64,000 bases of DNA from a virus (IMGVR_UViG_3300050821_001527:96001-160000); one strand, 5' to 3'; shown: positions 20,834 through 33,718, counted from the stretch's first letter. A program made the numbers and translations. Notes: generated by a model not told the origin, from the sequence alone.

Positions 20834-20905
20834 ATCCAGTTGTTCAAGAGAACAATGCGAACTCCAAATCCGCAGAGCAGGGCGCGATACCTTGACTGGA
20901 TGCCA
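20834..20905 (+). tRNA. tRNA-Trp(CCA)
   Basis: Loop CTCCAAA, G73, T-loop CGCGATA, tiny D loop. Confidence 0.75.
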
Positions 20906-20906
20906 T

Positions 20907-21386
20907 TTAATGAGGGTTGTGTTTGACGACCCTTTCGCATAGAGCGATAAACTCGTCAACCGAAAGGTCTTGTTTAGCGTAGTTCACTTCGCTAGTAACC
21001 AAGCCACAGTTCGCCAGAGATGATTCGCCGCCTTTTGAAACTGCGACGATATGGTCTAGGGAATAGGTTTCCGGCTTGGAAATGTCAATTCTTTCACCAG
21101 TAAGATAGCAGCGTGGCTCACTTCCGATTTTATCCTTGAGTTGTTGAACGGTGAATTTGACGACTTTTGGGCGCACAGAACTTCTTCGATTGCCCCTGTA
21201 AAACGTCGCAATCTTAGAAACGAGAGGATTAGTTTCTCGGTAGTTTTTGGTGTTCTTTTGCATAGAAAGCTTTCTGTTCGGGCTGAAACGGTAGATAAGA
21301 GTCCATTTTGAGATTCCGGTTTCCTTGGCAACCGCGTCATAGCTCATTCCGTCAGTAAGCATTTTTTGAATTTTTTCATCGTTCAT
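20907..21386 (-). CDS. HNH homing endonuclease with N-terminal HTH
   Basis: CYLTG, SLDHIVAVSKGG..SLANC, N.AK; GTGTAATA 6 nt upstream. Confidence 0.85.
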   Translation of the reverse strand: MNDEKIQKMLTDGMSYDAVAKETGISKWTLIYRFSPNRKLSMQKNTKNYRETNPLVSKIATFYRGNRRSSVRPKVVKFTVQQLKDKIGSEPRCYLTGERIDISKPETYSLDHIVAVSKGGESSLANCGLVTSEVNYAKQDLSVDEFIALCERVVKHNPH

Positions 21387-21392
21387 ACAAGA

Positions 21393-21400
21393 TATTACAC
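21393..21400 (-). promoter_or_regulatory. Phage GTGTAATA promoter motif
   Basis: 6 nt upstream of ATG 21386. Confidence 0.65.
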
Positions 21401-21437
21401 TTGCAAATTGCCAGTGGGAACTTGCAATGACGATTTT

Positions 21438-21509
21438 GGGCGTGTGTAGAAGGCTACTGGTTTGCTTTGCAAGCAAATTGTCGGGGAGCGTTACCCCGCA
21501 TGTCCACCA
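21438..21509 (+). tRNA. tRNA-Ala(TGC)
   Basis: G3:U70, loop TTTGCAA, T-loop AGCGTTA. Confidence 0.85.
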
Positions 21510-21515
21510 ATTTTA

Positions 21516-21678
21516 CGGGTGTTGGCGAAAGTCAGTCAAGCTGACAGCGGAACCGTTAGAAAACCCGCCAAACGCAACCTCAAGTGTGGAGAATACTGGC
21601 TCATATAATTGCCTGAAAAGGCGATACAATGGGGGTTTTTAATGTCTCCTTGTGGGTATAACTCCCACACACCCGCCA
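21516..21678 (+). ncRNA. tRNA-like RNA with ~110-nt insert replacing the anticodon loop
   Basis: CGGGTGT/ACACCCG-CCA, T-arm GTGGG-TATAACT-CCCAC, inner TAGAAAACCC/GGGTTTTTA helix. Confidence 0.55.
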
Positions 21679-21679
21679 A

Positions 21680-21875
21680 TTTCAGTAGCATTAGCGGTTA
21701 AGGCAATACGATTAGTTACGTGAGCCTCCGTCCACAAGGTAGTGGGTATAATCAAGAAACAAGTGACTCGGTGCCTAAAAGGAGTCATCCCAATGAGCGG
21801 GCGAAAGCTTGTCGCGTTCACCGATTACAAGGTGCATTGGTGCGATAAATGCAGGGTGCGAATCCCAAGCTGAAA
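21680..21875 (+). ncRNA. Structured RNA ending in a T-arm-like hairpin
   Basis: TTTCAG/CTGAAA closing stem, GGG-TGCGAAT-CCC, internal hairpins. Confidence 0.4.
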
Positions 21876-21997
21876 GTATTTCTATCGGCATCAACACAAT
21901 GAACACACCGGCTTAAATGAGTTTCATAACTATGTTGAGTTAGCCGCGTGGTGCTGGTGAGTCGGCGGGTAATCAATCCCGTATGGAGAAAAGTTTC

Positions 21998-22071
21998 GGG
22001 GTTGTGGTTCAATAGCAGAACGGCGGATTCGCAATTCGCAGACGACGGCGCGATACCGTCCTACTCCACCA
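21998..22071 (+). tRNA. tRNA-Ala(CGC)
   Basis: G3:U70, loop TTCGCAA, T-loop CGCGATA. Confidence 0.85.
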
Positions 22072-22081
22072 ATTTCAATTT

Positions 22082-22158
22082 CCGGCCTGCCGTTTGGGTG
22101 CGAGTCCCAAGTTTAAGCAAGTGAAAGCGGCTAACTAGCATAGGTCAATGGTCGGCCA
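22082..22158 (+). ncRNA. Circularly permuted tRNA-like (Y-RNA-like) RNA 1
   Basis: CCGGCC/GGTCGG closing stem; T-arm TTGGG-TGCGAGT-CCCAA precedes D-arm-like TAGCATAGGTCAATG. Confidence 0.5.
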
Positions 22159-22162
22159 ATTT

Positions 22163-22236
22163 GGGGTCATAGTTCAATAGTAGAACGCGAGGCTGGCAGT
22201 CTTGTAATCAGAGTGCGATTCTCTGTGGCTCCACCA
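22163..22236 (+). tRNA. tRNA-Ala(GGC)
   Basis: G3:U70, loop CTGGCAG, T-loop TGCGATT. Confidence 0.85.
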
Positions 22237-22343
22237 ATTTCTGAAACGTTCGGGATGGTGTAACGCGCTTTGGCGGTTCATTCGCCATTGCGAACTTCCG
22301 TTGTATCGAGAGAAGCGAAACGGCGTTTCGGGCAAACTTTAAT

Positions 22344-22437
22344 GGCCGGTGTCCCCATCGGGAGTCTGTAAAACTTCTATGCTTACAAATGTGATGGGAA
22401 GTTGCACCGAAGGAGCGTTACCTTCACCGCGCCACCA
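22344..22437 (+). tRNA. D-armless tRNA-Tyr(GTA)-like RNA
   Basis: Loop CTGTAAA, 10-nt D replacement, 31-nt variable region, T-loop AGCGTTA, ACCA. Confidence 0.6.
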
Positions 22438-22449
22438 ATTTCTTCTTGA

Positions 22450-22648
22450 CCGAAAACCAGACCTGTAAACCGAATGTCCCGGTAGGTTGCACGTATTGGT
22501 GAGTAAGAGGACACAGGAAGGAAAATTTTCATCCACTGGCGCACTGGCGCTAGTGCGAGATTCGGGGTGGGTGGCAATGAAGACCGAAGCCCCGACAACG
22601 CGAAACCTGCAAAAAGTGGTTTAACTACCGAGAGAGAGGACTCGGCGT
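22450..22648 (+). ncRNA. Unknown pseudoknotted structured RNA
   Basis: Crossing pairings CCGAA/TTCGG and GTAGGTT/AACCTGC, nested CCTG/CAGG and TGTCC/GGACA. Confidence 0.4.
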
Positions 22649-22651
22649 AAT

Positions 22652-22727
22652 GGTGGTATTGATGTAATAGTTAGCATCTTCCCCTGTGAAGGGAACTGTG
22701 CGGGTGCGAATCCCGTATATCACCCCA
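22652..22727 (+). tRNA. tRNA-His(GTG)
   Basis: G-1:C73, loop CTGTGAA, T-loop TGCGAAT. Confidence 0.9.
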
Positions 22728-22753
22728 ATTTCATTCACGTAGAACATGAAAGT

Positions 22754-22761
22754 GTGTAATA
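22754..22761 (+). promoter_or_regulatory. Phage GTGTAATA promoter motif
   Basis: 6 nt upstream of ATG 22768. Confidence 0.65.
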
Positions 22762-22767
22762 AAAGTT

Positions 22768-23214
22768 ATGAGCAGCGTTGACTCACTCGAAAACCACGAC
22801 CAGTTCCATTTGGAACAACTGCACAAGCTTTCCTGTCAAAGCGGCTCGAAGGACATTCTCGTTATTGACGATAGCACGGGCGACTTGATGGACATTCAGA
22901 AGATTATGAACCTCAAGTATGCAGACCAATTTCACGTAAGGTATTGTCTGGACGCTGAAAAGGGGATTGAGATTCTCAAGGAAAACAATTTCTTTTTGGT
23001 TTTGCTCGATTTCAAGATGCCGAAGTTGAACGGTCTTGAAGTAATCGAGACGGTAAACAAGATGAAGCAGAACGTTCCGTTCGTAGTTTTGACGGGATAC
23101 GGCGACCCATCCATGCGCGAAGCATTGACAAGATTGGGCGTAATGCTCCTGTTGGACAAGCCAATCACGGAGAAGAAGCTGGACATGCTCCTGACTTTGA
23201 CTCACGCGAAATAA
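22768..23214 (+). CDS. Stand-alone response-regulator receiver (CheY-like)
   Basis: ILVIDD, LLD.KMP..NG, VVLTG, DKP. Confidence 0.9.
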   Translation: MSSVDSLENHDQFHLEQLHKLSCQSGSKDILVIDDSTGDLMDIQKIMNLKYADQFHVRYCLDAEKGIEILKENNFFLVLLDFKMPKLNGLEVIETVNKMKQNVPFVVLTGYGDPSMREALTRLGVMLLLDKPITEKKLDMLLTLTHAK

Positions 23215-23219
23215 TTTCT

Positions 23220-23296
23220 GGCCGCATAGCTCAAATAGATAGAGCAGCACCCCGCGAAGGTGAAGGTTGTAGGTGCGACTCCTACTGTGGCTACCA
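23220..23296 (+). tRNA. tRNA-Arg(GCG)-like with 6-nt anticodon loop
   Basis: CACC-CGCGAA-GGTG lacks U33; rest of cloverleaf intact. Confidence 0.6.
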
Positions 23297-23493
23297 TTTT
23301 CCCGCATAGTCCGTTGAGCAGCCCCGTAGCAACGAGGAAACAAAAGCTTGATGGTTCAGCCAAGCCGTGCGCCAGCGCGGTATTTGCGTGGTGCGAGTCC
23401 ACGGGGAACGATTTATCCCCCTGCTGGTATAGTCCAGCGAAGTAGGTGAGGCTAACCTATGAGTGGTTCGTAACGCACAAGAGGGAATTTTAT

Positions 23494-23576
23494 GGGCATG
23501 TAACCGAAGCAGTCCTCGAAACTGATTAACCGTAATTATGTTGCAAATGTGGGTGAGATTCCCTCCATGCCTACCA
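23494..23576 (+). tRNA. D-armless tRNA-Arg(TCG)-like RNA
   Basis: GGGCATG/CATGCCT-ACCA, CAGT-CCTCGAA-ACTG, long variable region. Confidence 0.55.
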
Positions 23577-23662
23577 ATTTCTCTGTTTGACAATCGAGCC
23601 TAAATAGTCTGCACAGACGGCGCGGGTTCGTAGATGTTGTGCGAAACGGAGGATTCATTTCT

Positions 23663-23755
23663 GTTCCCGTAGCTGAAAGACAGCCGGTGCCCTTATAAAG
23701 CACTTAATCGCTAGATTGGCGTAAGACTCAGGAGCGTTACCTGACGGGAATACCA
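23663..23755 (+). tRNA. tRNA with TAT (Ile) anticodon and long variable arm
   Basis: Loop CTTATAA, D arm GCTG-AAAGA-CAGC, V hairpin TAATC/GATTG; 7/5 or 8/4 fold possible. Confidence 0.7.
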
Positions 23756-23762
23756 AATTTTA

Positions 23763-23846
23763 CGCATCGTGACATAAGCGCGAATAGCACAGCCACACGT
23801 CTCAAAAATGTGAGTTTTAAGGGTGCGAGTCCCTTCGATGCGACCA
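23763..23846 (+). tRNA. tRNA-Leu(CAA), short V, expanded D region
   Basis: Loop CTCAAAA, T-loop TGCGAGT. Confidence 0.7.
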
Positions 23847-23852
23847 ATTTAT

Positions 23853-23928
23853 GTGCCTATGATGGAATAGCATACATACCAGCCTCAGAAGTTGGGTTTT
23901 GCAGGTGCGAGTCCTGCTAGGCATACCA
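23853..23928 (+). tRNA. tRNA-Leu(CAG), short variable loop
   Basis: Loop CTCAGAA, V=GTTTT. Confidence 0.8.
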
Positions 23929-23933
23929 TTTCC

Positions 23934-24017
23934 CGCTCCGTGACCTTGTAGCGAACAGCACAGCTTGCCGTCTTAGACACGGTGGTTTTGCAGGTGCGAG
24001 TCCTGTCGGAGCGACCA
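23934..24017 (+). tRNA. tRNA-Leu(TAG), short V, expanded D region
   Basis: Loop CTTAGAC, T-loop TGCGAGT. Confidence 0.75.
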
Positions 24018-24022
24018 ATTTA

Positions 24023-24110
24023 GCCAGTGTGGTGAAAGAGCAGACACACCATCTTGAGAAGGTGGCGCGAATAAAGTAGCGTGTAGGTGCGAATCCTATC
24101 ACTGGCACCA
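24023..24110 (+). tRNA. tRNA-Leu(GAG)
   Basis: Loop TTGAGAA, long V arm. Confidence 0.9.
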
Positions 24111-24192
24111 ATTTCCTAATGGAAGGTCTGTTAGGACACAGTAGCAGTCGAGATTCTAACCGCCTCGCCGGGGCGTTGCTACACGGCATTAC

Positions 24193-24267
24193 GGTCTATT
24201 GTTGAATGAGTTATCATAGTTCCCTGTCACGGAGCAATAACGGGTGCGAGTCCCGTATAGACCGCCA
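24193..24267 (+). tRNA. tRNA-Asp(GTC)
   Basis: Loop CTGTCAC, G73. Confidence 0.9.
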
Positions 24268-24345
24268 TTTTACGGCTGAGTTAGCGATTCCTGCGCGTGG
24301 GAACGAGACGATTCACTTCGTTTAACTGATGAAGCCGCCAATTTT

Positions 24346-24422
24346 GGGATAGAAGGTAAAGTAGTGGAACCGTTCCGTTGTCTGCGGAAAAAAAGTGGGT
24401 GCGACTCCCATCTATCTCGCCA
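24346..24422 (+). tRNA. tRNA-Asp(GTC), atypical loop TTGTCTG
   Basis: Cloverleaf, G73, U37. Confidence 0.75.
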
Positions 24423-24517
24423 TTTTGTCAGAGAAGTCCGTCAACCATGCGGTTGACCCGTATGGAGAACGTCGAGTTCAGACATATTGTATAGCTGGCC
24501 ACTTAGGACTTCCGTTC

Positions 24518-24595
24518 AGTCAGTGAGGGAGTAAGATAACCCCGACGCCTGCAAAGCGTTTCGTATAGTCGGAGCATTACCGACACTGACTTCCA
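24518..24595 (+). tRNA. tRNA-Cys(GCA)
   Basis: Loop CTGCAAA, U73, T-loop AGCATTA. Confidence 0.85.
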
Positions 24596-24599
24596 TTTC

Positions 24600-24676
24600 G
24601 TCCTAATGGTGTAAGGGAATTACAACACGGTAGTCTTCGGACTACAGATGCAAGCCAACTATTGCAAGGGACTCCA
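24600..24676 (+). pseudogene. Degenerate tRNA-like gene with anticodon arm capped by C-TTCG-G
   Basis: D arm and CCA present; GTAGTC-TTCG-GACTAC; 8-nt T-loop. Confidence 0.45.
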
Positions 24677-24680
24677 ATTT

Positions 24681-24757
24681 CGGTTTGTCGCCTAGTGTTC
24701 ATGGCACTCGCCTTGGGAGCGAGCATAACGCGGGTTAAAATCCCGCCAAGCCGACCA
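24681..24757 (+). tRNA. tRNA-Pro(TGG)
   Basis: CGG start, loop CTTGGGA, T-loop TTAAAAT. Confidence 0.85.
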
Positions 24758-24765
24758 TTTTTTAG

Positions 24766-24843
24766 ACGGGGTATAATGTCAGCAGCTAGACGGCTCCCTT
24801 CGGAGGGGAGAGGCCGTGGGTGCGAATCCCACTACCCCGACCA
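24766..24843 (+). tRNA. tRNA-Pro(CGG)
   Basis: Loop TTCGGAG, T-loop TGCGAAT. Confidence 0.9.
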
Positions 24844-24847
24844 TTTA

Positions 24848-24919
24848 TGCAGGAAGAATGAGATTCAAGCGGGCCTCATAAGCCTACCCCCGTGGACGCG
24901 ACTTCCACTCCTGCTTCCA
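24848..24919 (+). tRNA. tRNA(CAT)-like, reduced D arm
   Basis: Loop CTCATAA, T-loop CGCGACT. Confidence 0.55.
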
Positions 24920-24963
24920 TTTTTTATCGAACAGAAACCGTTCTCCGATATAATAGATATTTA

Positions 24964-25041
24964 CGCGGGGTGGACAAGTAGTAAGTCGTTGGCCTCATAA
25001 GCCAAATATCGTCAGGTGCGATTCCTGACCTCACGCAACCA
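24964..25041 (+). tRNA. Initiator-type tRNA-fMet(CAT)
   Basis: CGCGGGG start, C1:A72 mismatch, loop CTCATAA. Confidence 0.8.
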
Positions 25042-25044
25042 TTT

Positions 25045-25461
25045 ATGGAAGACGCCGTTCTCAACACGCAAAAAGCCTTGGACACCGCATTGGCATCATT
25101 GAATGCGCTGGCTAAAAAAGATTACGTTCCTCCGACAACCCCCGACATTGACCCCGAAACTGAAATGCCGATTAAAGGGAATGGCACGGAAGAATATGAT
25201 ACCGAAGACGCTTACGAGGATGGGGAAGAAGCAGTCCGTCTGTGCATTGAAATTGCCCAGTTGAGGCTAGAGGTCGAGGGCCAGCCCCGCCGTGCTATCG
25301 TCAACACGGAAAAGGCGGCAGAAATCCGAGCAAGGGGAGCGATTGACAAGGTAAGACCAGAGCGTCACCTGAGCGTTTCTCCCGAACTTATCAAGAGTAT
25401 CGAACATTCCGTAGCTAAACCGGAAATGATGTTCTTCGTTTTGGAAGAACCCAAGGAATAA
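25045..25461 (+). CDS. Acidic hypothetical protein
   Basis: 138-aa ORF between tRNAs. Confidence 0.65.
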   Translation: MEDAVLNTQKALDTALASLNALAKKDYVPPTTPDIDPETEMPIKGNGTEEYDTEDAYEDGEEAVRLCIEIAQLRLEVEGQPRRAIVNTEKAAEIRARGAIDKVRPERHLSVSPELIKSIEHSVAKPEMMFFVLEEPKE

Positions 25462-25467
25462 GATTTC

Positions 25468-25542
25468 GCGTTGTTGGCAGAGAAGTGATGCGCTTGCCTT
25501 CCAAGCAAGTTTAAGTGGGAGCATTACCCACACAACGCTCCA
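25468..25542 (+). tRNA. tRNA-Gly(TCC)
   Basis: Loop CTTCCAA, U73. Confidence 0.9.
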
Positions 25543-25545
25543 ATT

Positions 25546-25970
25546 TGTCCGAAGCTATAATCCCCGTGCGTAATAGCACTAAGCGCAAGTAGGCCGAAAG
25601 GCAGAACCGTGATGGTGGATGAACTGCTCGTCTAAAATATCGGCTACATAATTTAGTCAGGTCGTCGGTCTGTCGTTGCGGTGAGCAATCACCAAGCCTA
25701 TGGGACGGCGGCTCGAAAAGGTATCCGTAAGCTGGCAGGAATCGCTTGTGCAAGATTCCACTACCGAAGGAGAATGCGGCGAAAGCCAAGTTCGTTCGCA
25801 CTTGTAGTAGGTCAGTCATCTCAGCCGAGGCAGGCATTTTCAAAATCGTTAGGGTTAGTCCAACCACGGTAAAACGTGAGAGGGGTCATAAAAGACTGCA
25901 AGCGTCACCCTGCCTAAAACCCCCTGTTGGTGAGTGGATAGTTGAAAACGAGGTCAGCGATGACCTGACT
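25546..25970 (+). ncRNA. Candidate large (~425 nt) structured ncRNA
   Basis: No credible ORF or tRNA; GNRA-capped hairpins at 25593, 25680, 25778, 25952. Confidence 0.55.
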
Positions 25971-25973
25971 TTT

Positions 25974-26049
25974 AGCCGCATGGTGAAATTACAATCACAC
26001 AATCCTGCGAAGATTGAAGTCCCGGTGAGATTCCGGGTGCTGGCTACCA
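25974..26049 (+). tRNA. tRNA-Arg(GCG)
   Basis: Loop CTGCGAA, T-loop TGAGATT. Confidence 0.85.
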
Positions 26050-26053
26050 TTTT

Positions 26054-26128
26054 GCGACATAGGTGTTTATAGATACACGCGAGTCTTCCAAACTTGAGTA
26101 GTGAGTGCGATACTCACACGTCGCTCCA
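26054..26128 (+). tRNA. tRNA-Gly(TCC)
   Basis: Loop CTTCCAA, U73. Confidence 0.85.
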
Positions 26129-26192
26129 ATTTATGCACCCAAAACTTGCAAGTTACTCGACCCATGAATCGAGTGTGGTGCAACCAATTTAT

Positions 26193-26267
26193 TCCCTAGT
26201 AGTGTCAAAGTAGCACGTCTCCCTGTTAAGGAGTTTAGTGTTGGTGCGAGTCCAACCTTCGGAACCA
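26193..26267 (+). tRNA. tRNA-Asn(GTT), mismatched acceptor
   Basis: Loop CTGTTAA. Confidence 0.7.
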
Positions 26268-26279
26268 TTTAGTCAGCAT

Positions 26280-26364
26280 TCCAGAGTAGGAGAATTGGTA
26301 AACCCAGCGGACTGTTAATCCGCCGCGAAAGCAACTGCTCGTTCAAGTCGAGCCTCTGGAGCCA
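26280..26364 (+). tRNA. tRNA-Asn(GTT) with long variable arm
   Basis: Loop CTGTTAA, V hairpin GC-GAAA-GC, canonical GG/TTC elbow, G73. Confidence 0.85.
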
Positions 26365-26474
26365 TTTTCAAGACATTTCCCCTGACGAAAGCTCTACGAT
26401 GTAGAACATCGCACCAGCAAGTCATGGTTACATGACGTGTCCGTGGACGCACGGAAGCGGGGAGTTTGAATTTT

Positions 26475-26552
26475 GCATCCGTCAACCAAACGCGTAAATG
26501 ACTCGGGCTTTTAACCCAAAGGATGTGGTCACGCAAGCCACCGGATGCACCA
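26475..26552 (+). tRNA. tRNA-Lys(TTT)
   Basis: Loop CTTTTAA, T-loop CACGCAA. Confidence 0.75.
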
Positions 26553-26670
26553 ATTTCTACCTGAACACAAGTGCTATGTCATCGAGCCAAGTCACGGTTA
26601 TTGTGTATCGTGAAAATTCCGTTGACAATGTAGCAATGCGCGAGAAAGACGCGCACGGGTTCCTTTTCAT

Positions 26671-26744
26671 AGGGATATAGTATAAAAGTAGAACGGCACC
26701 CTGACACGGTGAAGGCGAAGGAGCGTTACCTTCTATCCCTACCA
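26671..26744 (+). tRNA. tRNA-Val(GAC)
   Basis: Loop CTGACAC, T-loop AGCGTTA. Confidence 0.9.
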
Positions 26745-26750
26745 TTTTAT

Positions 26751-26831
26751 GAGAATCGAGACGCGGGTGCATATCCCGCCTGCCTGTTTAAATACTTGCA
26801 GTAGCTTAGTAGCAGAGCGCGATTCGTCTCC
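26751..26831 (+). ncRNA. Circularly permuted tRNA-like (Y-RNA-like) RNA 2
   Basis: GAATCG/CGATTC closing stem; T-arm, loop-closed CTGC/GCAG acceptor, then D arm TAGCTTAGTAGCAGAGC. Confidence 0.75.
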
Positions 26832-26838
26832 CTTTTAC

Positions 26839-26917
26839 GGAACGGTAACTCAAATGGGTCAAGAGTGTTCGCCCGATTAGCGAAAGGTTGTGGACTCCCA
26901 AGCCACTCGTTCTACCA
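26839..26917 (+). tRNA. tRNA-Ile(GAT), loop CCGATTA
   Basis: Cloverleaf with irregular T-loop. Confidence 0.65.
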
Positions 26918-26922
26918 ATCAC

Positions 26923-26995
26923 GGTTCCATACGATAAAGCAGTCCCCATGCCCGATTAGCGTGGTGTCTTGGTGCGAGTCCAAGTGGAACTACCA
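26923..26995 (+). tRNA. tRNA-Ile(GAT), loop CCGATTA
   Basis: GGTTCCA/TGGAACT, T-loop TGCGAGT. Confidence 0.7.
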
Positions 26996-27000
26996 TTTAC

Positions 27001-27076
27001 TGCCCTTTAGCTCATTCAGCAGAGCGGCGTCTTGATAAGGCGAAGGTGGTCGGGGCAGAGCCGACAAGGGCAACCA
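27001..27076 (+). tRNA. tRNA-Ile(GAT)
   Basis: Loop TTGATAA, T-loop GGCAGAG. Confidence 0.9.
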
Positions 27077-27079
27077 ATT

Positions 27080-27244
27080 ATGAAACCATACGGATTGACA
27101 AAGAAAATCCTACACAACCATCCCGATGTTCACCCGCCGAAGGGCTGGGTCAACTGGTGGGAAAGCGAAACGAGGGACTGTCTCCGCAAGAAAGCAGAAC
27201 GCCAACAGGCGAAAAAACAGATTTTACAAGATTTGGCTTCGTAG
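27080..27244 (+). CDS. Small basic hypothetical protein
   Basis: MKPYG start; stop TAG is nt 8-10 of tRNA-Lys. Confidence 0.6.
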   Translation: MKPYGLTKKILHNHPDVHPPKGWVNWWESETRDCLRKKAERQQAKKQILQDLAS

Positions 27245-27311
27245 CTCAAGCGTCAAGAGCAGCCGCCTTTTAAGCGGAAGCGTCCGGGCAGTCAATCCGG
27301 TGGGGCCACCA
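27235..27311 (+). tRNA. tRNA-Lys(TTT)
   Basis: Loop CTTTTAA, T-loop CAGTCAA. Confidence 0.85.
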
Positions 27312-27457
27312 ATTTATAAACACCTAGACCGTGTGCGATACCGGCATGGTTTCGTGAGTCGGCTATGTCGAAGCCGAAGAAGATTCGCGGGACTTGGAGT
27401 GTGAAAGAAGCACGGGTGTATTTTTTTGAATAAAAAGCGGATTCGTTTATCATAGGT

Positions 27458-27835
27458 ATGCAAAACGTTTATCTGAACCGCGACGAACTCCTGCCGATTG
27501 TCAAGGAGAACAAGCAAAAGCACGACAACATTTTTTCCACAGCCGTTTCCGGCTATTGGGTCAAGGCCGAAGAAATCCTGAACGGCAAACTGAACAAGGT
27601 CAAAGCCAAGCAGCAAGTTGACAATTACCTTGGACTCAGCTATCCCGAAGACCATTCTGATGAATATGACCGAGTAATCAGGATGCTGGAACTTTCGTCT
27701 GATGACAAGATTCAGCTTACGTCTTCCGAGTTTGATTGCTATGTTCGCAATCAATGGAACTGGCGCAAGGCGTTCTTGACGGTCAATTCAACATACATTT
27801 CGGACTGGAACCCCATTTCCGGGGCTTCATTCTAA
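27458..27835 (+). CDS. Conserved-looking phage hypothetical protein
   Basis: P.DHSDEYDRVIRMLE motif. Confidence 0.7.
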   Translation: MQNVYLNRDELLPIVKENKQKHDNIFSTAVSGYWVKAEEILNGKLNKVKAKQQVDNYLGLSYPEDHSDEYDRVIRMLELSSDDKIQLTSSEFDCYVRNQWNWRKAFLTVNSTYISDWNPISGASF

Positions 27836-27915
27836 CAGTCTTGGTCGAGGCGTGGGTTCGATTCCGCCGTGTGGCTCCATGCCGCACGTAGCTTAGTGGC
27901 AGAGCGCGACCTGTT
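27834..27915 (+). ncRNA. Circularly permuted tRNA-like (Y-RNA-like) RNA 3, Thr/Gly-type acceptor
   Basis: 3' half (GGTCG, TTCGATT T-loop, CGTGTGGC-TCCA), 1 nt, then 5' half (GCCGCACG, D arm, CGACC); ends pair AACAG/CTGTT. Confidence 0.8.
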
Positions 27916-27916
27916 C

Positions 27917-27991
27917 GGGGCTATGGTGCAGAAGTAAGCACGTTAGGTTCTCAACCTGAAAACGTCGGAGCGTTACCGACTAGCCCTACCA
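27917..27991 (+). tRNA. tRNA-Glu(CTC)
   Basis: Loop TTCTCAA, T-loop AGCGTTA. Confidence 0.85.
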
Positions 27992-27997
27992 ATTTAC

Positions 27998-28073
27998 GGG
28001 GGAGTGGTGCATAAGTAAGCACGGTTGGCTTTCACCCAGCAGAAGCTCGGAGCGTTACCGGCCTCCCCTACCA
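27998..28073 (+). tRNA. tRNA-Glu(TTC)
   Basis: Loop CTTTCAC. Confidence 0.85.
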
Positions 28074-28078
28074 TTTCT

Positions 28079-28156
28079 GTAGCTGACCAGTAAGTCGTCG
28101 TCTGCTCTGGCTTTCAACCAGATGTGTAGTGGGTGCGAGTCCCACCAGCTATGCCA
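28079..28156 (+). tRNA. tRNA-Glu(TTC)
   Basis: Loop CTTTCAA, irregular D arm. Confidence 0.75.
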
Positions 28157-28219
28157 TTTCCGGGGTGCGCCTCGTCAATTCGTTGATAGGACGGCGAATA
28201 TATCACCCCACTTTTTCTC

Positions 28220-28297
28220 GGTTCCGTGGTGTAAATGGATTAAGCACAAGAGACTTTGACCCTCTTAGCTCCGGGTGCCAGCCGGACGGAACTGCCA
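28220..28297 (+). tRNA. tRNA-Gln(TTG)
   Basis: Loop CTTTGAC. Confidence 0.8.
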
Positions 28298-28304
28298 TTT
28301 TTAT

Positions 28305-28380
28305 TCCCTCTTGGATTGTAATAGTAGCAACTCGGGCTTTGAACCCGAAAGCGGTGGGGCAGAACCATCAGAGGGAGCCA
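28305..28380 (+). tRNA. tRNA-Gln(TTG)
   Basis: U1:A72, loop CTTTGAA, G73. Confidence 0.9.
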
Positions 28381-28465
28381 TTTATCGGGGTAAGGGTGTA
28401 TTCGTGTAACGACCACTCGGAAGGAGTCTGGAAGCTTACGGACAAACTTCGTCCCCATCTATTTT

Positions 28466-28541
28466 CGGAGTGTATTGTCAACAGCAGACGGCCCGCCTTG
28501 GAAGTGGGAGGTAGTTGGGGCAGCACCAACCATTCCGACCA
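28466..28541 (+). tRNA. tRNA-Pro(TGG)
   Basis: Loop CTTGGAA, T-loop GGCAGCA. Confidence 0.9.
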
Positions 28542-28545
28542 ATTT

Positions 28546-28728
28546 ATGAACACTGAAAAAATCGTAGGTCAAGAATATCCAGCCGAATGTCTCGTTGATT
28601 CCAAGACGGGTCTGCCGGTGATGATTCGTCATACCGAAGATTCGGACAGGATTCGTCAGTTGGCGAAGGCCAGCGCGGAGAACCTTCTGAGGGCTTTGCG
28701 AGACGAAACGGGGCTGACGCCCATTTAA
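28546..28728 (+). CDS. Hypothetical protein (60 aa)
   Basis: ATG just after tRNA-Pro. Confidence 0.55.
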   Translation: MNTEKIVGQEYPAECLVDSKTGLPVMIRHTEDSDRIRQLAKASAENLLRALRDETGLTPI

Positions 28729-28733
28729 TTTAC

Positions 28734-28809
28734 GGGTCTATAACTCAAATAGATAGAGCCTCGCCTTCTAAGCGATGGGATTCAGGTGCGACTCCTGATA
28801 GACCTACCA
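28734..28809 (+). tRNA. tRNA-Arg(TCT)
   Basis: Loop CTTCTAA, T-loop TGCGACT. Confidence 0.9.
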
Positions 28810-28852
28810 TTTCTAGTATAGCCACATGGCGTTTCACAAGTGCTTCAACTAG

Positions 28853-28860
28853 GTGTAATT
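28853..28860 (+). promoter_or_regulatory. Phage GTGTAATT promoter motif
   Basis: 6 nt upstream of ATG 28867. Confidence 0.6.
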
Positions 28861-28866
28861 CTAGGT

Positions 28867-29343
28867 ATGGGCCACAAAGCTACAAACGAACAACTGGCGG
28901 TTATTATCGCAGAGTCTATTTCCTTCTCTGAGGCAATGAGAAAATGCGATATGAAGCCAAGGGGAGCGTCTTACCAATGGTTTCAAAAACGAGTTAAGAA
29001 GCTCGGATTAGACACGTCTCATTTTAAGGGATACTCGGCTGGTGGTCTGGAAAGGGCCAAGCAGATAAAGAAGCATTGGTCGGAGATTCTTGTTTTAGGA
29101 GACGGTTCGGGCAGAGAAAGGTCAGAGCCTCTTAGGAGGGCTTTTAAAGAATACTGCTTAGAGCAGGCAGTCCCACATATTTGCAACGTCTGCAACGTCT
29201 GCAAGATGGAACCAATTTGGAATGGCCAGCCAATGATATTTCAAATTGACCACATCAATTCAATCAATTTCGATAACAGACCGCTGAACCTTCAATGGAT
29301 TTGCGGCAACTGTCATCAACAGAAAAATTCTAACGGCTACTAA
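28867..29343 (+). CDS. HNH homing endonuclease
   Basis: LGLDTSHF.G N-terminus, CxxC, QIDHINSI..DNR..NL..ICGNCH. Confidence 0.9.
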   Translation: MGHKATNEQLAVIIAESISFSEAMRKCDMKPRGASYQWFQKRVKKLGLDTSHFKGYSAGGLERAKQIKKHWSEILVLGDGSGRERSEPLRRAFKEYCLEQAVPHICNVCNVCKMEPIWNGQPMIFQIDHINSINFDNRPLNLQWICGNCHQQKNSNGY

Positions 29344-29410
29344 GCTAATCAAGTGAAAGCAGCGGACTGAAAATCCGTGGAGTTTGGCGCGATACCAAAA
29401 GTAGCCACCA
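29335..29410 (+). tRNA. tRNA-Phe(GAA)
   Basis: Loop CTGAAAA, T-loop CGCGATA. Confidence 0.9.
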
Positions 29411-29415
29411 ATTTT

Positions 29416-29563
29416 GGGTATATGTTGTAATGGCAGCAAAAAGGGCGGGAGAGTCGAGGGAATAGCAGACCAACTATAGCTCTGTAAGCCTAGTAGCTCG
29501 ATTTGAAAACCTGAATACTCGTCTATACGAGTGGCCTCGGTTCGATTCCGGGTATATCCACCA
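29416..29563 (+). tRNA. tRNA with ~52-nt hairpin insert in the anticodon loop, long V arm, G3:U70
   Basis: GGGTATA/TATATCC-ACCA, D arm with GG, ACTCGT/ACGAGT V arm, TTCGATT T-loop; identity unresolved. Confidence 0.65.
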
Positions 29564-29567
29564 ATCT

Positions 29568-29646
29568 CCGTCAGTAGCTCAAATGTGGTAAGAGCGTTGG
29601 TTTGAAACACCAAAGGTTGTCGTTCCCCAAACGACTTGACGGGCCA
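29568..29646 (+). tRNA. tRNA-Phe(GAA)
   Basis: Loop TTGAAAC, T-loop TCCCCAA. Confidence 0.75.
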
Positions 29647-29666
29647 TTTTAAGTGTATAATTCTGT

Positions 29667-29921
29667 GTGGAAGCACTAGCAAAACAGACCCTTCAATGTG
29701 ATGACTGCAAGAAAGTCATTGACACCCGCCGCGATACTGACCTTGAGGACAGCATCCAAGCGAAGTTGAAGAACCTCAAGGGCGACCCGCAGGTTTATCA
29801 TTTCTGCGCGGAAAGCTGCCTTGCCTCCTTTTTGCAGAAGCGCATCAAGAAAAAGAACGCCCGCGCCTCATACGACGCTTTCGCCTACGAGATTGATTTG
29901 TCCGGGGCAAAGGTTAAATAA
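29667..29921 (+). CDS. Small Cys-containing hypothetical protein
   Basis: CDDC, FC..SC. Confidence 0.6.
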   Translation: MEALAKQTLQCDDCKKVIDTRRDTDLEDSIQAKLKNLKGDPQVYHFCAESCLASFLQKRIKKKNARASYDAFAYEIDLSGAKVK

Positions 29922-30130
29922 TGAAATTTTCATCTTTCGCCAAGCTTGTGTTGATTTTCGGGGCAGCGATTATGCTCCTTGATGGTTGCGCTCTCGTTGG
30001 TTGTAATCACGCATTCCCGCAAGTCGAATGGTATTGGTCAGCCGATGCTAAAGCCTGTCGCAAGGAACACGCGATGGAAGCCCAGTGGCGACAGTCCGCA
30101 ACAAACAATTTAAGGCAGTCGTTCAAGTGA
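29921..30130 (+). CDS. Small lipoprotein-like protein
   Basis: Signal peptide with LDGC; stop lies in next tRNA. Confidence 0.55.
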   Translation: MKFSSFAKLVLIFGAAIMLLDGCALVGCNHAFPQVEWYWSADAKACRKEHAMEAQWRQSATNNLRQSFK

Positions 30131-30184
30131 ACAAGATGCTCTCATAAGGCGTCAAGGATGGAGCGTTACCATCGTCTGCTACCA
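30114..30184 (+). tRNA. tRNA(CAT) elongator Met or Ile2
   Basis: Loop CTCATAA, 4-nt D loop. Confidence 0.75.
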
Positions 30185-30189
30185 ATTTC

Positions 30190-30266
30190 GGATTCGTAGC
30201 TCAAATGCTAAGAGCAGCCGGTTCTTACCCGGAAGGTTGTGGCTCGTCAAGCCACCGAGTCCACCA
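30190..30266 (+). tRNA. tRNA-Lys(CTT)
   Basis: Loop TTCTTAC, T-loop TCGTCAA. Confidence 0.85.
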
Positions 30267-30344
30267 TTTATGGCCGTCAGCCTGAACCCCATCAGGCTAG
30301 TCCACCAAGGACGATGCAGAGGGTTATGCAACGGCATCCATTTC

Positions 30345-30416
30345 GCCAGTGCCGTCAGCACGGATTCGAGTTTTGTAAACTTGAAGCAGTCGGGGCAGCA
30401 CCGACCTCTGGCTCCA
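30345..30416 (+). tRNA. tRNA-Thr(TGT)
   Basis: Loop TTTGTAA, CAGC D tetraloop, U73. Confidence 0.8.
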
Positions 30417-30420
30417 TTTC

Positions 30421-30556
30421 GCCGTTCTAGTTCAATGTAGAACACGTCTCTCGAAAAGCCGATAGGCTCCCTGAACGGAGCAGTTAGTGGGGTGTTTGCC
30501 CTGCGATGTAATAAGGCCAGATGAACTGCTGGTGCCAAGTCCAGCGAACGGCTCCA
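30421..30556 (+). tRNA. Thr-type tRNA body with ~62-nt insert in the anticodon loop
   Basis: GCCGTTC/GAACGGC-TCCA, D arm GTTC/GAAC, anticodon stem CGTCT/AGATG. Confidence 0.7.
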
Positions 30557-30626
30557 AACTAGGCTGCGCGTGGTAGCCTCAGAGGGGTGAAAGTCCCTAA
30601 CCACGACAAATTTAATTCAATTTAAT

Positions 30627-30701
30627 CGCCCGTTCTGAATAATAGTAGTTCGTCGCGCTCTGAACGCGAAGGCGGTGGGGCAGAACCATCACGGGTGGCC
30701 A
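30627..30701 (+). tRNA. tRNA-Gln(CTG)
   Basis: Loop CTCTGAA, G73. Confidence 0.85.
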
Positions 30702-30706
30702 TTTAC

Positions 30707-30780
30707 GCGGGATTAGCTCAAAAGTAGAGCGAGTCGTTTACACCGACAGGACGAGGGAGCATTACCTTCATTCCGCACCA
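30707..30780 (+). tRNA. tRNA-Val(TAC)
   Basis: Loop TTTACAC. Confidence 0.9.
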
Positions 30781-30785
30781 TTTAC

Positions 30786-30862
30786 GCAATCGAAGCTACA
30801 GCAGACCGGCTCCCGGCTCTTAACCGGATTTGGTGAGGTTGCAACTACCTCCGATTGCACCA
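30786..30862 (+). tRNA. tRNA-Lys(CTT)
   Basis: Loop CTCTTAA, T-loop TGCAACT. Confidence 0.8.
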
Positions 30863-30866
30863 TTTC

Positions 30867-30946
30867 GCGGTCTTAGCTTAAACGGATAAAAGCCCTTCGC
30901 TCTTAACGAATGAGATGTCGCCCTCCAAGCAGGACAGACCGCACCA
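30867..30946 (+). tRNA. tRNA-Lys(CTT), aberrant T arm
   Basis: Loop CTCTTAA, 3-bp T stem with large loop. Confidence 0.65.
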
Positions 30947-31006
30947 ATTTGATTACACCCCTGCCGCCTCTTGACAATGCGTAATCGCAGGGGTTTTTCC
31001 ATTTAT

Positions 31007-31092
31007 GGCCGTGTGTAGCGTAAGGGAAAAGCAGAACCGATAGACTTAAAATCTGTTGCTACTTGAGGGTGCAAGACCGTCCACGGCTACCA
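31007..31092 (+). tRNA. tRNA-Leu(TAA), expanded D region, 8-nt V
   Basis: Loop CTTAAAA, T-loop TGCAAGA. Confidence 0.75.
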
Positions 31093-31111
31093 ATTTAGTG
31101 TAATGTTTGTC

Positions 31112-31189
31112 ATGGACAACTCAAAGCCTTGGTGGAAAGAAGAATGGTTTGAAACTTGGCTGAAAATTGCCCGCCGTCAGTTCTCGTAA
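31112..31189 (+). CDS. 25-aa Trp-rich micropeptide
   Basis: ATG 6 nt after GTGTAATG (31098-31105). Confidence 0.45.
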   Translation: MDNSKPWWKEEWFETWLKIARRQFS

Positions 31190-31193
31190 ATGC

Positions 31194-31201
31194 GTGTAAT
31201 A
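31194..31201 (+). promoter_or_regulatory. Phage GTGTAATA promoter motif
   Basis: 6 nt upstream of ATG 31208. Confidence 0.65.
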
Positions 31202-31207
31202 AGAAGT

Positions 31208-31966
31208 ATGGGAAAGTTACTAAGACTCGGAAGAAAGCAAGCCCGCTTCGACAAGCGCACTTTGAAGCTGGAAGACTACATTTCTGCTGATTTACAGTTC
31301 CCCCGCAAGGTTGTTTGGCAGAACAAGATTCCAAATTGGGGCATGATGCTTAACGACCAGTTGGGAGATTGCACCTGTGCCGCTGCCGGTCACATGATTA
31401 TGAACTGGACGGCCAATGCGGGCGTCCTCGTCACCCCAAACGACAACCAAATTCTTTCCGCTTACGAAGCCGTTGGGGGATACAACCCAAATGCCGCTCC
31501 CGACGCCAATGGAAACAACCCAACCGATAACGGTGCCGTTGAACTTGACGTTTTGAAGTATTGGCAGGGAACCGGAATCGCCGGTCACAAAATCGGGGCT
31601 TACGTCAGCATTGACCCGAAGAACAGACGCCACTTGAAGTTGGCTATCTGGCTGTTTGGGGGAATTTACACAGGTGTCAACCTCACGCAAGCGGACATGG
31701 ACGCCACCAACGCAAACCAGCCTTGGAAATACACCACCGGTTCCTCGATTGGCGGTCACGCCATTCCTGCCTTGGGATTCAACCAGCACGGCTTTCAATT
31801 CATTACATGGGGAGCCGTTCAAACGGCCACTCCTGAATGGGTCGCCAACCAAACCGAAGAAGTTTACGCCTTGATTTCCGCAGATTGGCTTGAAAACAAT
31901 GGCAATGCTCCCTCTGGTTTTGATGCTCAACAACTTGCCGCCGACTTAAAAAGCGTCCAAAACTAA
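31208..31966 (+). CDS. Papain-like (C1-type) cysteine peptidase
   Basis: DQLGDCTCAA catalytic Cys, GGHAI catalytic His, ITWG. Confidence 0.8.
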   Translation: MGKLLRLGRKQARFDKRTLKLEDYISADLQFPRKVVWQNKIPNWGMMLNDQLGDCTCAAAGHMIMNWTANAGVLVTPNDNQILSAYEAVGGYNPNAAPDANGNNPTDNGAVELDVLKYWQGTGIAGHKIGAYVSIDPKNRRHLKLAIWLFGGIYTGVNLTQADMDATNANQPWKYTTGSSIGGHAIPALGFNQHGFQFITWGAVQTATPEWVANQTEEVYALISADWLENNGNAPSGFDAQQLAADLKSVQN

Positions 31967-32010
31967 TTCAAAATATTTGCTTGGGCCAAGCCATCCGGGT
32001 ATAATATGGC

Positions 32011-33357
32011 ATGAGTCCGTCGTCTAATGCCGTTCAGCCGCTCAAGGTAGTTTTTTGCACTACCTGCAAGGGCCGCGTAAGTCACATCAAGAAAACCCTC
32101 CCCAAGAATTTGGCCGATAATCCCGGCGCGACCTTTATCCTTCTGGATTACAATGATAGTGGTGAATTAGCTTACCACGTCCGCAACGCCTGCCAGTCCG
32201 AAATTAAAGAGGGCAGGCTGGTGTATTATCAATACCGAGACAATGTTCCCTTCCGCATGGCTCACGCCAAAAACATGGCGCACAGGCTCGGAATCATGGA
32301 AGGCGCGGATATTCTGGTGAACTTGGACGCCGACAATCGCACGGGCGAAGGCTTCGCTGAATACATCGCGGAAAACTTCACCCGCACCCGCAACGACCCG
32401 CAGGAAATTTTCATGTGGAGCAGGATGATTAAAGGGGTTCTGAAACGCGGAATCACCGGGCGCATTGTGGTCAGCAAAAACGCTTTTCTTCTCGCTGGCG
32501 GATACGACGAACAGTATGCCACTTACTCCCCGGACGATAAAGATTTTGAAGCCCGCTTACGCAGACTGGGATTCTGTGCCCAAGAGATTGACAGCAAGTA
32601 TCTGGACGCGGTATATCACGACGACAACGTAAGATTCAAGGAATACGCCCATTTGCTTGAGACGAGCGCAGCATACGAAACCCCCTGCATCTCTCCGCAC
32701 AACCGCGTAGTCAATAACGGTAAATTTGGTTGCGGGGTTGTTTACAAGAATTTCGACGAGACTCCAATCACGCTTGCTCCGGTTCCTACCCGTATTTTTG
32801 GCATCGGGATGCACAAGACCGCAACGACCTCTTTAAGCGAAGCCCTGACCATCCTTGGGCTAAAGTCGGGTCATTGGGAACACCCGCGCTGGGCTAGACA
32901 AGTCTGGTCTGACATGAAGAATGTCGGTAGCTCTCCATCCGTGGAAAAGTATTATGCGCTTAGTGATTTGCCAATCGGAATTCTGTTTAGAGAATTGGAC
33001 GTGGCTTATCCGGGGTCGAAGTTCATCCTGACTGTCCGCGATGAATATGAATGGTTGAAGTCGGTTGAGAAACACTTTGATAGAAACATCAATCCCTACC
33101 GTAATTCATGGGACAACGATGCCTTTACCCACAGACTACACAACGAAATCTATGGACAGAGAAAATTCTCTTACCGTGTGTTCGTGGAGAGATACAGGAA
33201 GCACAACGCGGAAGTCTTGGAGTATTTCAAGGACAGACCGAATGATTTGCTGGTTATGAACGTTGACGATAAGACTGGATGGACAGAGCTATGCGCCTTT
33301 TTGGGCCAGCCAGTTCCTTCTATGAGCTATCCGAGAAAGTTCGTGACCAAGAAATAA
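32011..33357 (+). CDS. Glycosyltransferase (GT2/GT7-like) fused to P-loop sulfotransferase
   Basis: N-terminal LDAD, GGYDE..DD.DF..RL; C-terminal IFGIGMHKTATTSL, P.SKFILTVR, W..LC.FL. Confidence 0.85.
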   Translation: MSPSSNAVQPLKVVFCTTCKGRVSHIKKTLPKNLADNPGATFILLDYNDSGELAYHVRNACQSEIKEGRLVYYQYRDNVPFRMAHAKNMAHRLGIMEGADILVNLDADNRTGEGFAEYIAENFTRTRNDPQEIFMWSRMIKGVLKRGITGRIVVSKNAFLLAGGYDEQYATYSPDDKDFEARLRRLGFCAQEIDSKYLDAVYHDDNVRFKEYAHLLETSAAYETPCISPHNRVVNNGKFGCGVVYKNFDETPITLAPVPTRIFGIGMHKTATTSLSEALTILGLKSGHWEHPRWARQVWSDMKNVGSSPSVEKYYALSDLPIGILFRELDVAYPGSKFILTVRDEYEWLKSVEKHFDRNINPYRNSWDNDAFTHRLHNEIYGQRKFSYRVFVERYRKHNAEVLEYFKDRPNDLLVMNVDDKTGWTELCAFLGQPVPSMSYPRKFVTKK

Positions 33358-33370
33358 ATTGAATTTTATT

Positions 33371-33460
33371 GGAAGATAAAGTAGTGAGGCAGCTACAACG
33401 CGGTGCTAACGCGATTGCCCCTCTAAAGGGGGTGGGGTTCGAGTCCTCTATCTTCCGCCA
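33371..33460 (+). tRNA. tRNA-Ser(GCT)
   Basis: Loop GTGCTAA, long V, TTC T-loop, G73. Confidence 0.9.
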
Positions 33461-33465
33461 AATTT

Positions 33466-33678
33466 ATGACCACTAACGAAAAAATACTAGCGACACTCGG
33501 CGAGATGCCAGCGGGCGCGAAAATCATGTATTTCGCATTTGACGGCGACACGGGAGAGCTTTTGTCTGCTGTATATTTCAACAAGACGTATTTCCTGAAT
33601 GGACGAGAGGACGTGGCCGAAAAAGCTGCCGAACGCTTGGGTTCGGAAGTCTGCTCCAAGATGCCAGAAGCTCCATAA
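33466..33678 (+). CDS. Hypothetical protein
   Basis: ATG right after tRNA-Ser. Confidence 0.6.
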   Translation: MTTNEKILATLGEMPAGAKIMYFAFDGDTGELLSAVYFNKTYFLNGREDVAEKAAERLGSEVCSKMPEAP

Positions 33679-33718
33679 ATTTCTTGACTTCCCATGAAAA
33701 TTTTCATAGGATAATGGG

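Follow-up and report, generated by a model that had tools for sequence, protein, structure and literature searches.

Comparative evidence for a fifth helix in leucine tRNAs encoded by a soil phage

Leucine tRNAs are described in two forms, the bacterial class II form with its long variable arm and the type I form, a four-arm cloverleaf with a short variable loop, the latter being already in public phage annotation and, for Streptomyces, in the literature. The identity read by the E. coli leucyl-tRNA synthetase (LeuRS) lies in A73, the A15–U48 pair and the elbow, and in neither the anticodon nor the long arm (PMC9976931), and a bacterial (Streptomyces) LeuRS charges a type I tRNA-Leu (PMC6614811). 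Here we describe leucine tRNA genes from a tRNA array in a 64,000-nt stretch of DNA (hereafter the window, which is the whole stretch analysed: bases 96001–160000 of one 202,882-bp soil viral contig, CheckV completeness 91%), three of which appear, by comparison with their homologues, to carry a fifth helix, together with an asparagine tRNA gene with an additional arm. We found no close relative of this soil phage contig among cultured phages.

The sequence-only reading of the window had proposed an “arm swapping” that links leucine tRNAs with short variable regions to an asparagine tRNA with a long one. We found no such link. The genes probably represent three separate phage tRNA designs, with no exchange of arms between isotypes: a five-helix tRNA-Leu for the anticodons CAA, TAG and TAA, a type I tRNA-Leu(CAG) of the same lineage without the insert, and an extra-armed tRNA-Asn(GTT).

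Leucine tRNA genes and the proposed fold

The array (20680–35200, plus strand) is dense, with more than 50 tRNA-like genes. CCA is encoded at the end of nearly all of these, with (A)TTT behind it, and many have T loops of unusual sequence (TGCGAGT, AGCGTTA and GGCAGAA, for example). ARAGORN reports 17 tRNAs and a transfer-messenger RNA and the Rfam tRNA model about 27 tRNAs, and neither ARAGORN nor the Rfam model at E ≤ 1 detects Leu(CAA), Leu(TAG) or Leu(TAA). These are found by a custom parser that takes as its anchors the CCA end and the acceptor, T and anticodon stems, of 7, 5 and 5 bp, respectively.

The window has one leucine tRNA gene per anticodon, as does the genome, spread over three designs (five-helix, type I and class II) and all on the plus strand. 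Leu(CAA) at 23763–23846 and Leu(TAG) at 23934–24017 (each 84 nt, with a D region of 26 nt and a variable region of 6 nt) and Leu(TAA) at 31007–31092 (86 nt, 26 nt and 8 nt) are of the five-helix type, scoring 73.4, 76.9 and 75.9 bits, respectively, with our family covariance model R2. Leu(CAG) at 23853–23928 is a plain type I cloverleaf of 76 nt (D region 19 nt, variable region 5 nt), and Leu(GAG) at 24023–24110, which serves as the internal comparison, is an ordinary class II tRNA with a D region of 19 nt and a 17-nt variable arm; both are found by ARAGORN, Rfam and the parser. A73 is present in all five, and CCA is encoded in CAA, CAG, TAG and TAA. The absence of a class II variable arm from these last four, already noticed in the sequence-only reading, is borne out: a long arm (more than 10 nt with its own stem-loop) occurs only in Leu(GAG), the normal class II tRNA that the phage also has.

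The extra 7 nt of the CAA, TAG and TAA genes sit between U8 and the D stem. An expanded D region shared by CAA and TAG had been placed at the motif GAAYAGCACAGC; the motif is indeed in both genes, but it is the ordinary D loop plus the 3′ strand of the D stem, near-identical in the class I Leu(CAG), and not the expansion itself. Leu(CAG) is a close paralogue of CAA and TAG without the 7-nt insert and without the fifth helix (“helix X”): in the alignment to covariance model R1 it shows a clean 7-nt gap at the insert, and the T arm is common to all three.

In each of the three genes, the insert can pair with the variable strand. In Leu(TAA), GTAGC(G) at 31015–31020 faces (T)GCTAC at 31057–31062, followed by a D hairpin at 31024–31038; in Leu(TAG), GACC at 23942–23945 faces GGTT at 23984–23987, and the D stem is formed by AGC (23950–23952) with GCT (23963–23965) and closed by G13 (23953) opposite A22 (23962); in Leu(CAA), GAC at 23771–23773 faces GTT at 23814–23816 (3 bp), with a D hairpin at 23780–23793. 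The anchored test gives runs of 3, 4 and 6 X pairs in CAA, TAG and TAA, respectively. The complementarities that the sequence-only reading gave for TAA (GTAGC at 31015–31019 with GCTAC at 31058–31062) and for TAG (GACC with GGTT) are thus there, but the strand that pairs with the variable region is the insert upstream of the D arm and not the 5′ strand of the D stem. The alternative core that it inferred is supported, as a pairing of D region and variable region, for CAA, TAG and TAA, in view of compensatory changes in homologues, and does not extend to Leu(CAG), an ordinary type I cloverleaf. The elbow pairs G18–U55 and G19–C56 are absent from CAA, TAG and TAA: GG is missing from their D loops, and their T loops read TGCGAGT or TGCAAGA.

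The five-helix family is not D-armless, as its D hairpin is kept. G13·A22 is present in every member inspected by eye, the pairs 11–24 and 12–23 covary (GC, CG, AU and UA; 91–97% paired in the 33 distinct members described below), and the five-helix leucine tRNAs of some phages have a full 4-bp D stem. Together with the invariant A14 and A15, this retained arm argues that a standard D stem and the helix between D region and variable region coexist.

In a normal tRNA, nucleotides 8–9 and 44–48 run antiparallel along the D stem. In the proposed fold, both of these stretches would be lengthened and paired: the 6–8 nt inserted after U8 and a variable strand of 6–8 nt would form a helix X of 3–6 bp, so that the two single-stranded connectors of the cloverleaf pair with each other and its four-way junction becomes two three-way junctions. 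Helix X would fill the space in the core that is usually taken by the variable region and nucleotide 9, and may prop the weak D stem of 2–3 bp. With 4–5 bp it would roughly match the D stem in height; its upper end would be tied to U8 and U48, its lower end directly to the anticodon stem (0–1 nt between them) and, via 1–5 nt, to the D stem. It could either stack on the anticodon stem, with the D arm beside it, or occupy the space of the variable region, with the D stem keeping its place.

Comparative evidence and distribution

Relatives were collected by a scan of IMG/VR for a T arm with a CCA(A)TTT tail, which gave 58 loci, many with similar arrays. Covariance models (R1 and R2), searches of whole records and another two pattern scans enlarged the set to 43 matches (33 distinct sequences) on about 25 viral contigs. 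Each member pairs the stretch behind U8 with its variable strand and leaves 2–3 nucleotides unpaired ahead of the T stem. In a MAFFT alignment of 14 members from nine contigs, helix X is 84.3% paired against 64.5 ± 3.8% in shuffled alignments, and its covariation score is 0.675 against 0.326 (0/500 shuffles in each case, a control that overstates significance for related sequences and does not yield probabilities); as one window sequence is off register here, the count is conservative. Sliding the X partners by one to three columns lowers the pairing to 31–64%, and RNAalifold predicts the acceptor, X, short D hairpin, anticodon and T stems from the same alignment unaided.

Among the 33 distinct members, in the alignment fitted to the model, the four core X pairs are 100, 100, 100 and 94% paired and the fifth 55%. 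The core pairs occur, in order, as GC/GU, as GC/AU/GU/UA, as AU/UG/GC/CG and as UA/CG/GC/UG, so the covariation check in homologues proposed with the sequence-only reading comes out in its favour: the complementarity of D and variable regions is kept by compensatory changes. The acceptor, anticodon and T stems are 96–100% paired, likewise with abundant compensatory change. As far as comparison of sequences can show, the fifth helix is real. A literature search found no published description of a fifth helix in tRNA-Leu, most subscription journals being outside its reach.

The combination of a long D region with a short variable region occurs only with leucine anticodons (about 60 loci): 13 TAA, 8 CAA, 6 TAG, 3 GAG and 3 CAG among the 33 distinct members. 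U8, G9, A14, A15, A35, U48 and A73 are invariant in 33/33, CCA is encoded in 30/33, and the insert after U8 is always 6–8 nt long and starts with G9. The T loop is the canonical TTCGAAT in 15/33, that is, in about half of the members, so the fifth helix is independent of the odd elbow of the window phage. With R2, the three window genes score 73–77 bits against at most 61 for other tRNAs, and a further member (locus L018, 2910–2992) scores 60.8. In the loci examined, one other phage record has five-helix copies for all five leucine anticodons and another for four (TAG, CAA, CAG and GAG), and ARAGORN finds no class II tRNA-Leu in these loci of either record.

Searches further afield returned little. 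The exact D-loop and T-arm pattern of the window CAA and TAG genes has no match in viral contigs, and the T-arm pattern alone matches only locus L048; a metagenome scan gave five chance matches, none of them a tRNA. BLAST searches of 50,697 cultured-phage records, with four family members or clusters as queries, turned up no five-helix gene, a weak test for diverged RNAs of 85 nt. One narrow pattern, run over 185,579 species genomes, gave two matches, one by chance and the other a contig of a metagenome-assembled genome (MAG; CAZGOM010000336.1, 4136 bp, locus L157, Phycisphaeraceae bin). About 30 tRNA genes, packed tightly and including three five-helix leucine genes, make up nearly all of this contig, which has the look of a phage tRNA array that binning has placed in a bacterial MAG; the match fits a mainly phage distribution of the family, and is no proof of it.

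Some details of the leucine genes are recorded here as observations in their own right. Five-helix genes at L018:2910–2992 and 3072–3157, L064:204–287 and 295–378, and L109:2523–2606 have no encoded CCA while their neighbours do, and end in CGG, CCG, CTT, CTC or TCG. In four related phage contigs, Leu(GAG) has C33 instead of the near-universal U33 (loop TCGAGAR; L021:9158–9240, L072:1501–1584, L108:4657–4740 and L042:6857–6939), in five-helix and class II bodies alike. Bacterial leucine tRNAs that read CUN codons usually have G37, the site of m1G37; those of the window (23853–24110) and their relatives have A37, which is also found in 30/33 of the five-helix members.

Leucine identity and alternative explanations

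The leucine marks A73, U8–A14 and A15–U48, the pairs being predicted, are found in 33/33 members, including the three of the window. As the long arm is dispensable for leucine identity in E. coli, the family would thus keep the leucine marks while replacing the arm. A Pfam search of the whole phage (a 91%-complete genome) found no domain of the LeuRS/IleRS/ValRS or AsnRS/AspRS type, AsnRS and the like being the cognate synthetases; a phage-private synthetase is therefore unlikely and charging must fall to host enzymes. We infer that the five-helix leucine tRNAs are working tRNAs: they would be released by cleavage of the array transcript, receive leucine from the host LeuRS, an enzyme for which the long arm is dispensable in bacteria, and decode leucine codons.

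Several points weigh against this reading. In CAA and TAG, helix X has no more than 3 and 4 bp, respectively, with rough nearest-neighbour energies of +2.5 and about 0 (−0.5) kcal/mol, compared with −4.2 kcal/mol in TAA, and among the three window genes it is in the minimum-energy fold of Leu(TAA) only; nearest-neighbour energies in general do not set the five-helix fold apart. When the register is left free, the cross-pairing matrix is uninformative because the strands are rich in G and U. The 33-sequence alignment was fitted to the model and its sequences are related, as noted for the shuffle controls. Charging by the host is not a given, as the E. coli LeuRS failed to charge the type I tRNA-Leu of Streptomyces (PMC6614811); the window copies, moreover, have neither G18G19 nor U55 (T loop UGCGAGU), elements that the E. 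coli enzyme needs (PMC9976931). Finally, contigs from soil RNA libraries span the whole array at 100% identity at a depth like that of the flanks; this coverage is indistinguishable from DNA carry-over and is no evidence for transcription of these genes.

The shortness and marginal energy of helix X in CAA and TAG would also suit the view that the long-D genes are ordinary type I cloverleaves, in which the 7-nt insert is a tolerated bulge and its complementarity has no structural role. The sister gene Leu(CAG) does without the insert, and in 262 distinct ordinary short-variable tRNAs of related arrays, runs of at least three pairs arise by chance in 14.5% (at least four in 6% and at least five in 1%). 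We nevertheless consider this explanation unlikely: two-sided changes keep the pairing at four positions over 33 distinct sequences, pairing is lost when the partners are slid by one to three columns, and both the length of the insert (6–8 nt) and G9 are conserved. Nor does decay of class II tRNA-Leu genes into pseudogenes explain stems that are 96–100% paired, with compensatory change, in 33 distinct members on about 25 contigs, the mark of purifying selection; the single G·G mismatch in the T stem of Leu(TAA), and the label “Pseudo” that annotators gave to a related extra-armed asparagine gene of phage phiPsa374, count in its favour, and we give it hardly any credence.

The failure of gene finders to recognise CAA, TAG and TAA could be taken to mean that these are look-alikes that do not decode, either decoys for host defences that cut or modify tRNAs or regulatory RNAs, and toxins that choose tRNAs by their long variable arm do exist (MenT3; PMC11541572). 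Such a role seems improbable to us, given intact anticodon loops with leucine anticodons only and invariant leucine identity marks. The genome has no canonical copy for CAA, TAG or TAA, and with one leucine gene per anticodon, decoys would leave three leucine anticodons without a phage tRNA; in the two other phage records mentioned above, moreover, five-helix copies cover four or all five leucine anticodons in the loci examined, with no class II gene found by ARAGORN. Charging with another amino acid, whereby the phage would recode leucine codons, has to be considered because LeuRS does not read the anticodon, which is then no proof of identity by itself, and because the tRNA body is unlike that of a host-type tRNA-Leu. 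It is a very unlikely explanation: the genes have no G3·U70 (alanine) and no long arm or G73 (serine), A73, U8–A14 and A15–U48 match the leucine set, and the open reading frames (ORFs) of the window are normal under table 11, with good Pfam matches and no sign of recoding.

Returning to working five-helix tRNAs, a more far-reaching idea is that they form a third structural class of elongator tRNA, which phages evolved so as to keep recognition by LeuRS while shedding the long variable arm that tRNA-targeting defence toxins and nucleases of the host use as a handle, with a core that is perhaps a non-canonical L in which helix X stacks on the anticodon stem and the D arm is moved out of the way. 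We regard this idea as doubtful, and put it forward tentatively. The MenT3 toxin, of a defence-related family, anchors on the long variable arm of tRNA-Ser (PMC11541572), and we speculate that loss of the arm with retention of the LeuRS marks is an escape from arm-directed toxins; if true, a structural route would be added to the known anticodon-loop route of phage tRNA counter-defence. A fifth helix supported by covariation in a complete leucine tRNA set of a phage would be a natural counter-example within a bacterial translation system, and a compact test of how much rebuilding of a tRNA core LeuRS, EF-Tu, RNase P and the ribosome will accept. As these genes are missed by ARAGORN and Rfam, phage tRNA repertoires, and the analyses of codon supply based on them, are undercounted. 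The five-helix scaffolds could also be a starting point for orthogonal tRNA designs.

Asparagine tRNAs, other array features and comparison with known systems

The extra-armed tRNA-Asn(GTT) at 26280–26364 (plus strand) is found by ARAGORN, Rfam (48.6 bits), the parser and folding, and lies directly downstream of a second, class I tRNA-Asn(GTT) at 26193–26267 (plus strand; ARAGORN and Rfam) with the T loop TGCGAGT. Its variable region of 13 nt (26324–26336; CGCGAAAGCAACT) exceeds the 4–5-nt loop of class I, and the GAAA-capped arm assigned to it from the sequence is there, although as a mini-hairpin GC-GAAA-GC (26325–26332) with a stem of only 2 bp in the minimum-energy fold. It has a canonical T loop (TTCAAGT) and a D loop with GG. 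U1–A72, G73 and the anticodon loop CUGUUAA are typical of bacterial tRNA-Asn, and all are kept here, along with the GUU anticodon and C2–G71. Compared with a substrate of the seryl-tRNA synthetase, it has G73, its stem is only 2 bp, and its acceptor pairs U1–A72 and C2–G71 are unlike those of tRNA-Ser.

Variable regions of 11–24 nt are found in six of about 20 distinct Asn(GTT) genes in the loci examined. The extra-armed homologues that were folded give five-arm cloverleaves with variable stems of 2–5 bp, and the GUU anticodon, G73 and U1–A72 are present in all extra-armed homologues. Extra variable arms in related arrays also occur on Ile(TAT), Lys, Met, Pro, Arg, Cys and Thr tRNAs, which argues that the asparagine arm is part of a general looseness of phage tRNA design and not a counterpart of the leucine change. 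We take the gene at 26280 for a true tRNA-Asn, from a phage lineage whose variable region has gained a hairpin, shortened to 2 bp in this copy; it most likely still carries asparagine identity. A literature search that most subscription journals lay outside found no published description of an extra-armed phage tRNA-Asn.

The sequence-only reading had supposed a core fold shared with D-armless tRNAs. Elsewhere in the array, a D-armless Tyr(GTA) candidate at about 22344–22437 has an 8-nt 5′ connector with CCCATC, complementary to GATGGG in a variable region of 31 nt; this 6-bp complementarity, seen by eye, has the same topology as helix X, and its acceptor stem can be drawn only with a bulge. 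No homologues of this candidate came out of a search with a parser for D-armless tRNAs, and the mitochondrial mode of ARAGORN was of no help. Ile(TAT) tRNAs with variable arms of 22–24 nt recur at 23663–23755 of the window and in loci L014, L031, L034, L048, L052 and L054. The array also includes, at 22768–23214, an ORF of 148 aa in which Pfam recognises a response-regulator receiver domain (PF00072, E 2.5e-18). At 25652–25971, also within the array, there is a raiA-motif-like RNA (Rfam RF03072; 54.9 bits, below the gathering score of 101.3), matched exactly by a 350-nt contig with a depth of 242 in one soil RNA library in which the rest of the array has a depth of 0–5. This contig links its own end back to its start, and what another two RNA runs cover is mainly or only this same stretch. 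The RNA may be highly abundant and, in the assembly graph, possibly circular or tandem.

Among described tRNAs, the closest match of the asparagine gene is the 83-nt tRNA-Asn of Pseudomonas phage phiPsa374 and its relatives (Otagovirus; KJ409772), which is homologous to it and 77.5% identical over 79 nt. The two have in common G73, the loop CUGUUAA and a variable region of 13 nt whose stem is 2 bp long; the tetraloop is TAAC in the phiPsa374 gene and GAAA in the window. The sequence-only link to the leucine genes is replaced by this homology: the asparagine gene belongs to a separate lineage. The phiPsa374 gene (L062:1494–1579) has a one-base bulge in the 5′ acceptor strand. Its annotators named it “tRNA-Pseudo-GTT”, yet about 18 Pseudomonas phage records have conserved it.

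With the class II tRNA-Leu of bacteria, both that of E. coli and the phage's own Leu(GAG), the five-helix genes share leucine anticodons, A73, U8–A14, A15–U48, a total length of 84–86 nt and a short D stem closed by G13·A22. They differ in having, in place of the variable hairpin, a helix formed by the variable strand and an insert of 6–8 nt that lies between U8 and the D stem, and the window copies furthermore are without G18G19 and U55. The type I tRNA-Leu(CAA) of S. coelicolor (Fan et al. 2019; PMC6614811) combines a leucine anticodon with a short variable loop, as does the window Leu(CAG), the only one of the window genes to have the complete type I pattern of a four-arm cloverleaf, a variable loop of 4–5 nt and a leucine anticodon. 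Type I tRNA-Leu lacks the insert and the fifth helix that CAA, TAG and TAA carry, and the variable regions of these are 6–8 nt long. The T5-like Salmonella phage S130 has an annotated 74-nt tRNA-Leu-TAG whose D region and GTTTT variable loop are near-identical to those of the window Leu(CAG), and phiPsa374 also has an annotated 74-nt tRNA-Leu-TAG of type I.

Allo-tRNAs (Mukai et al. 2017; PMC5389517) are likewise non-canonical cloverleaves from metagenomes, some of them with leucine anticodons. They have long variable arms and 8/4 or 9/3 branches, whereas all five-helix genes have the canonical 7/5 geometry of acceptor and T stems and no long arm. For the pairing itself, the nearest published analogue comes from human mitochondria, whose D-armless tRNA-Ser(GCU) (Kuhle et al. 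2022; PMC9427863) has a 5′ connector, the “D replacement loop”, that pairs with the variable side and extends the anticodon stem, topologically the same helix as X. The mitochondrial tRNA has no D arm and no tertiary core, while the five-helix tRNAs of phages keep the D arm, A14 and A15, and the T loop.

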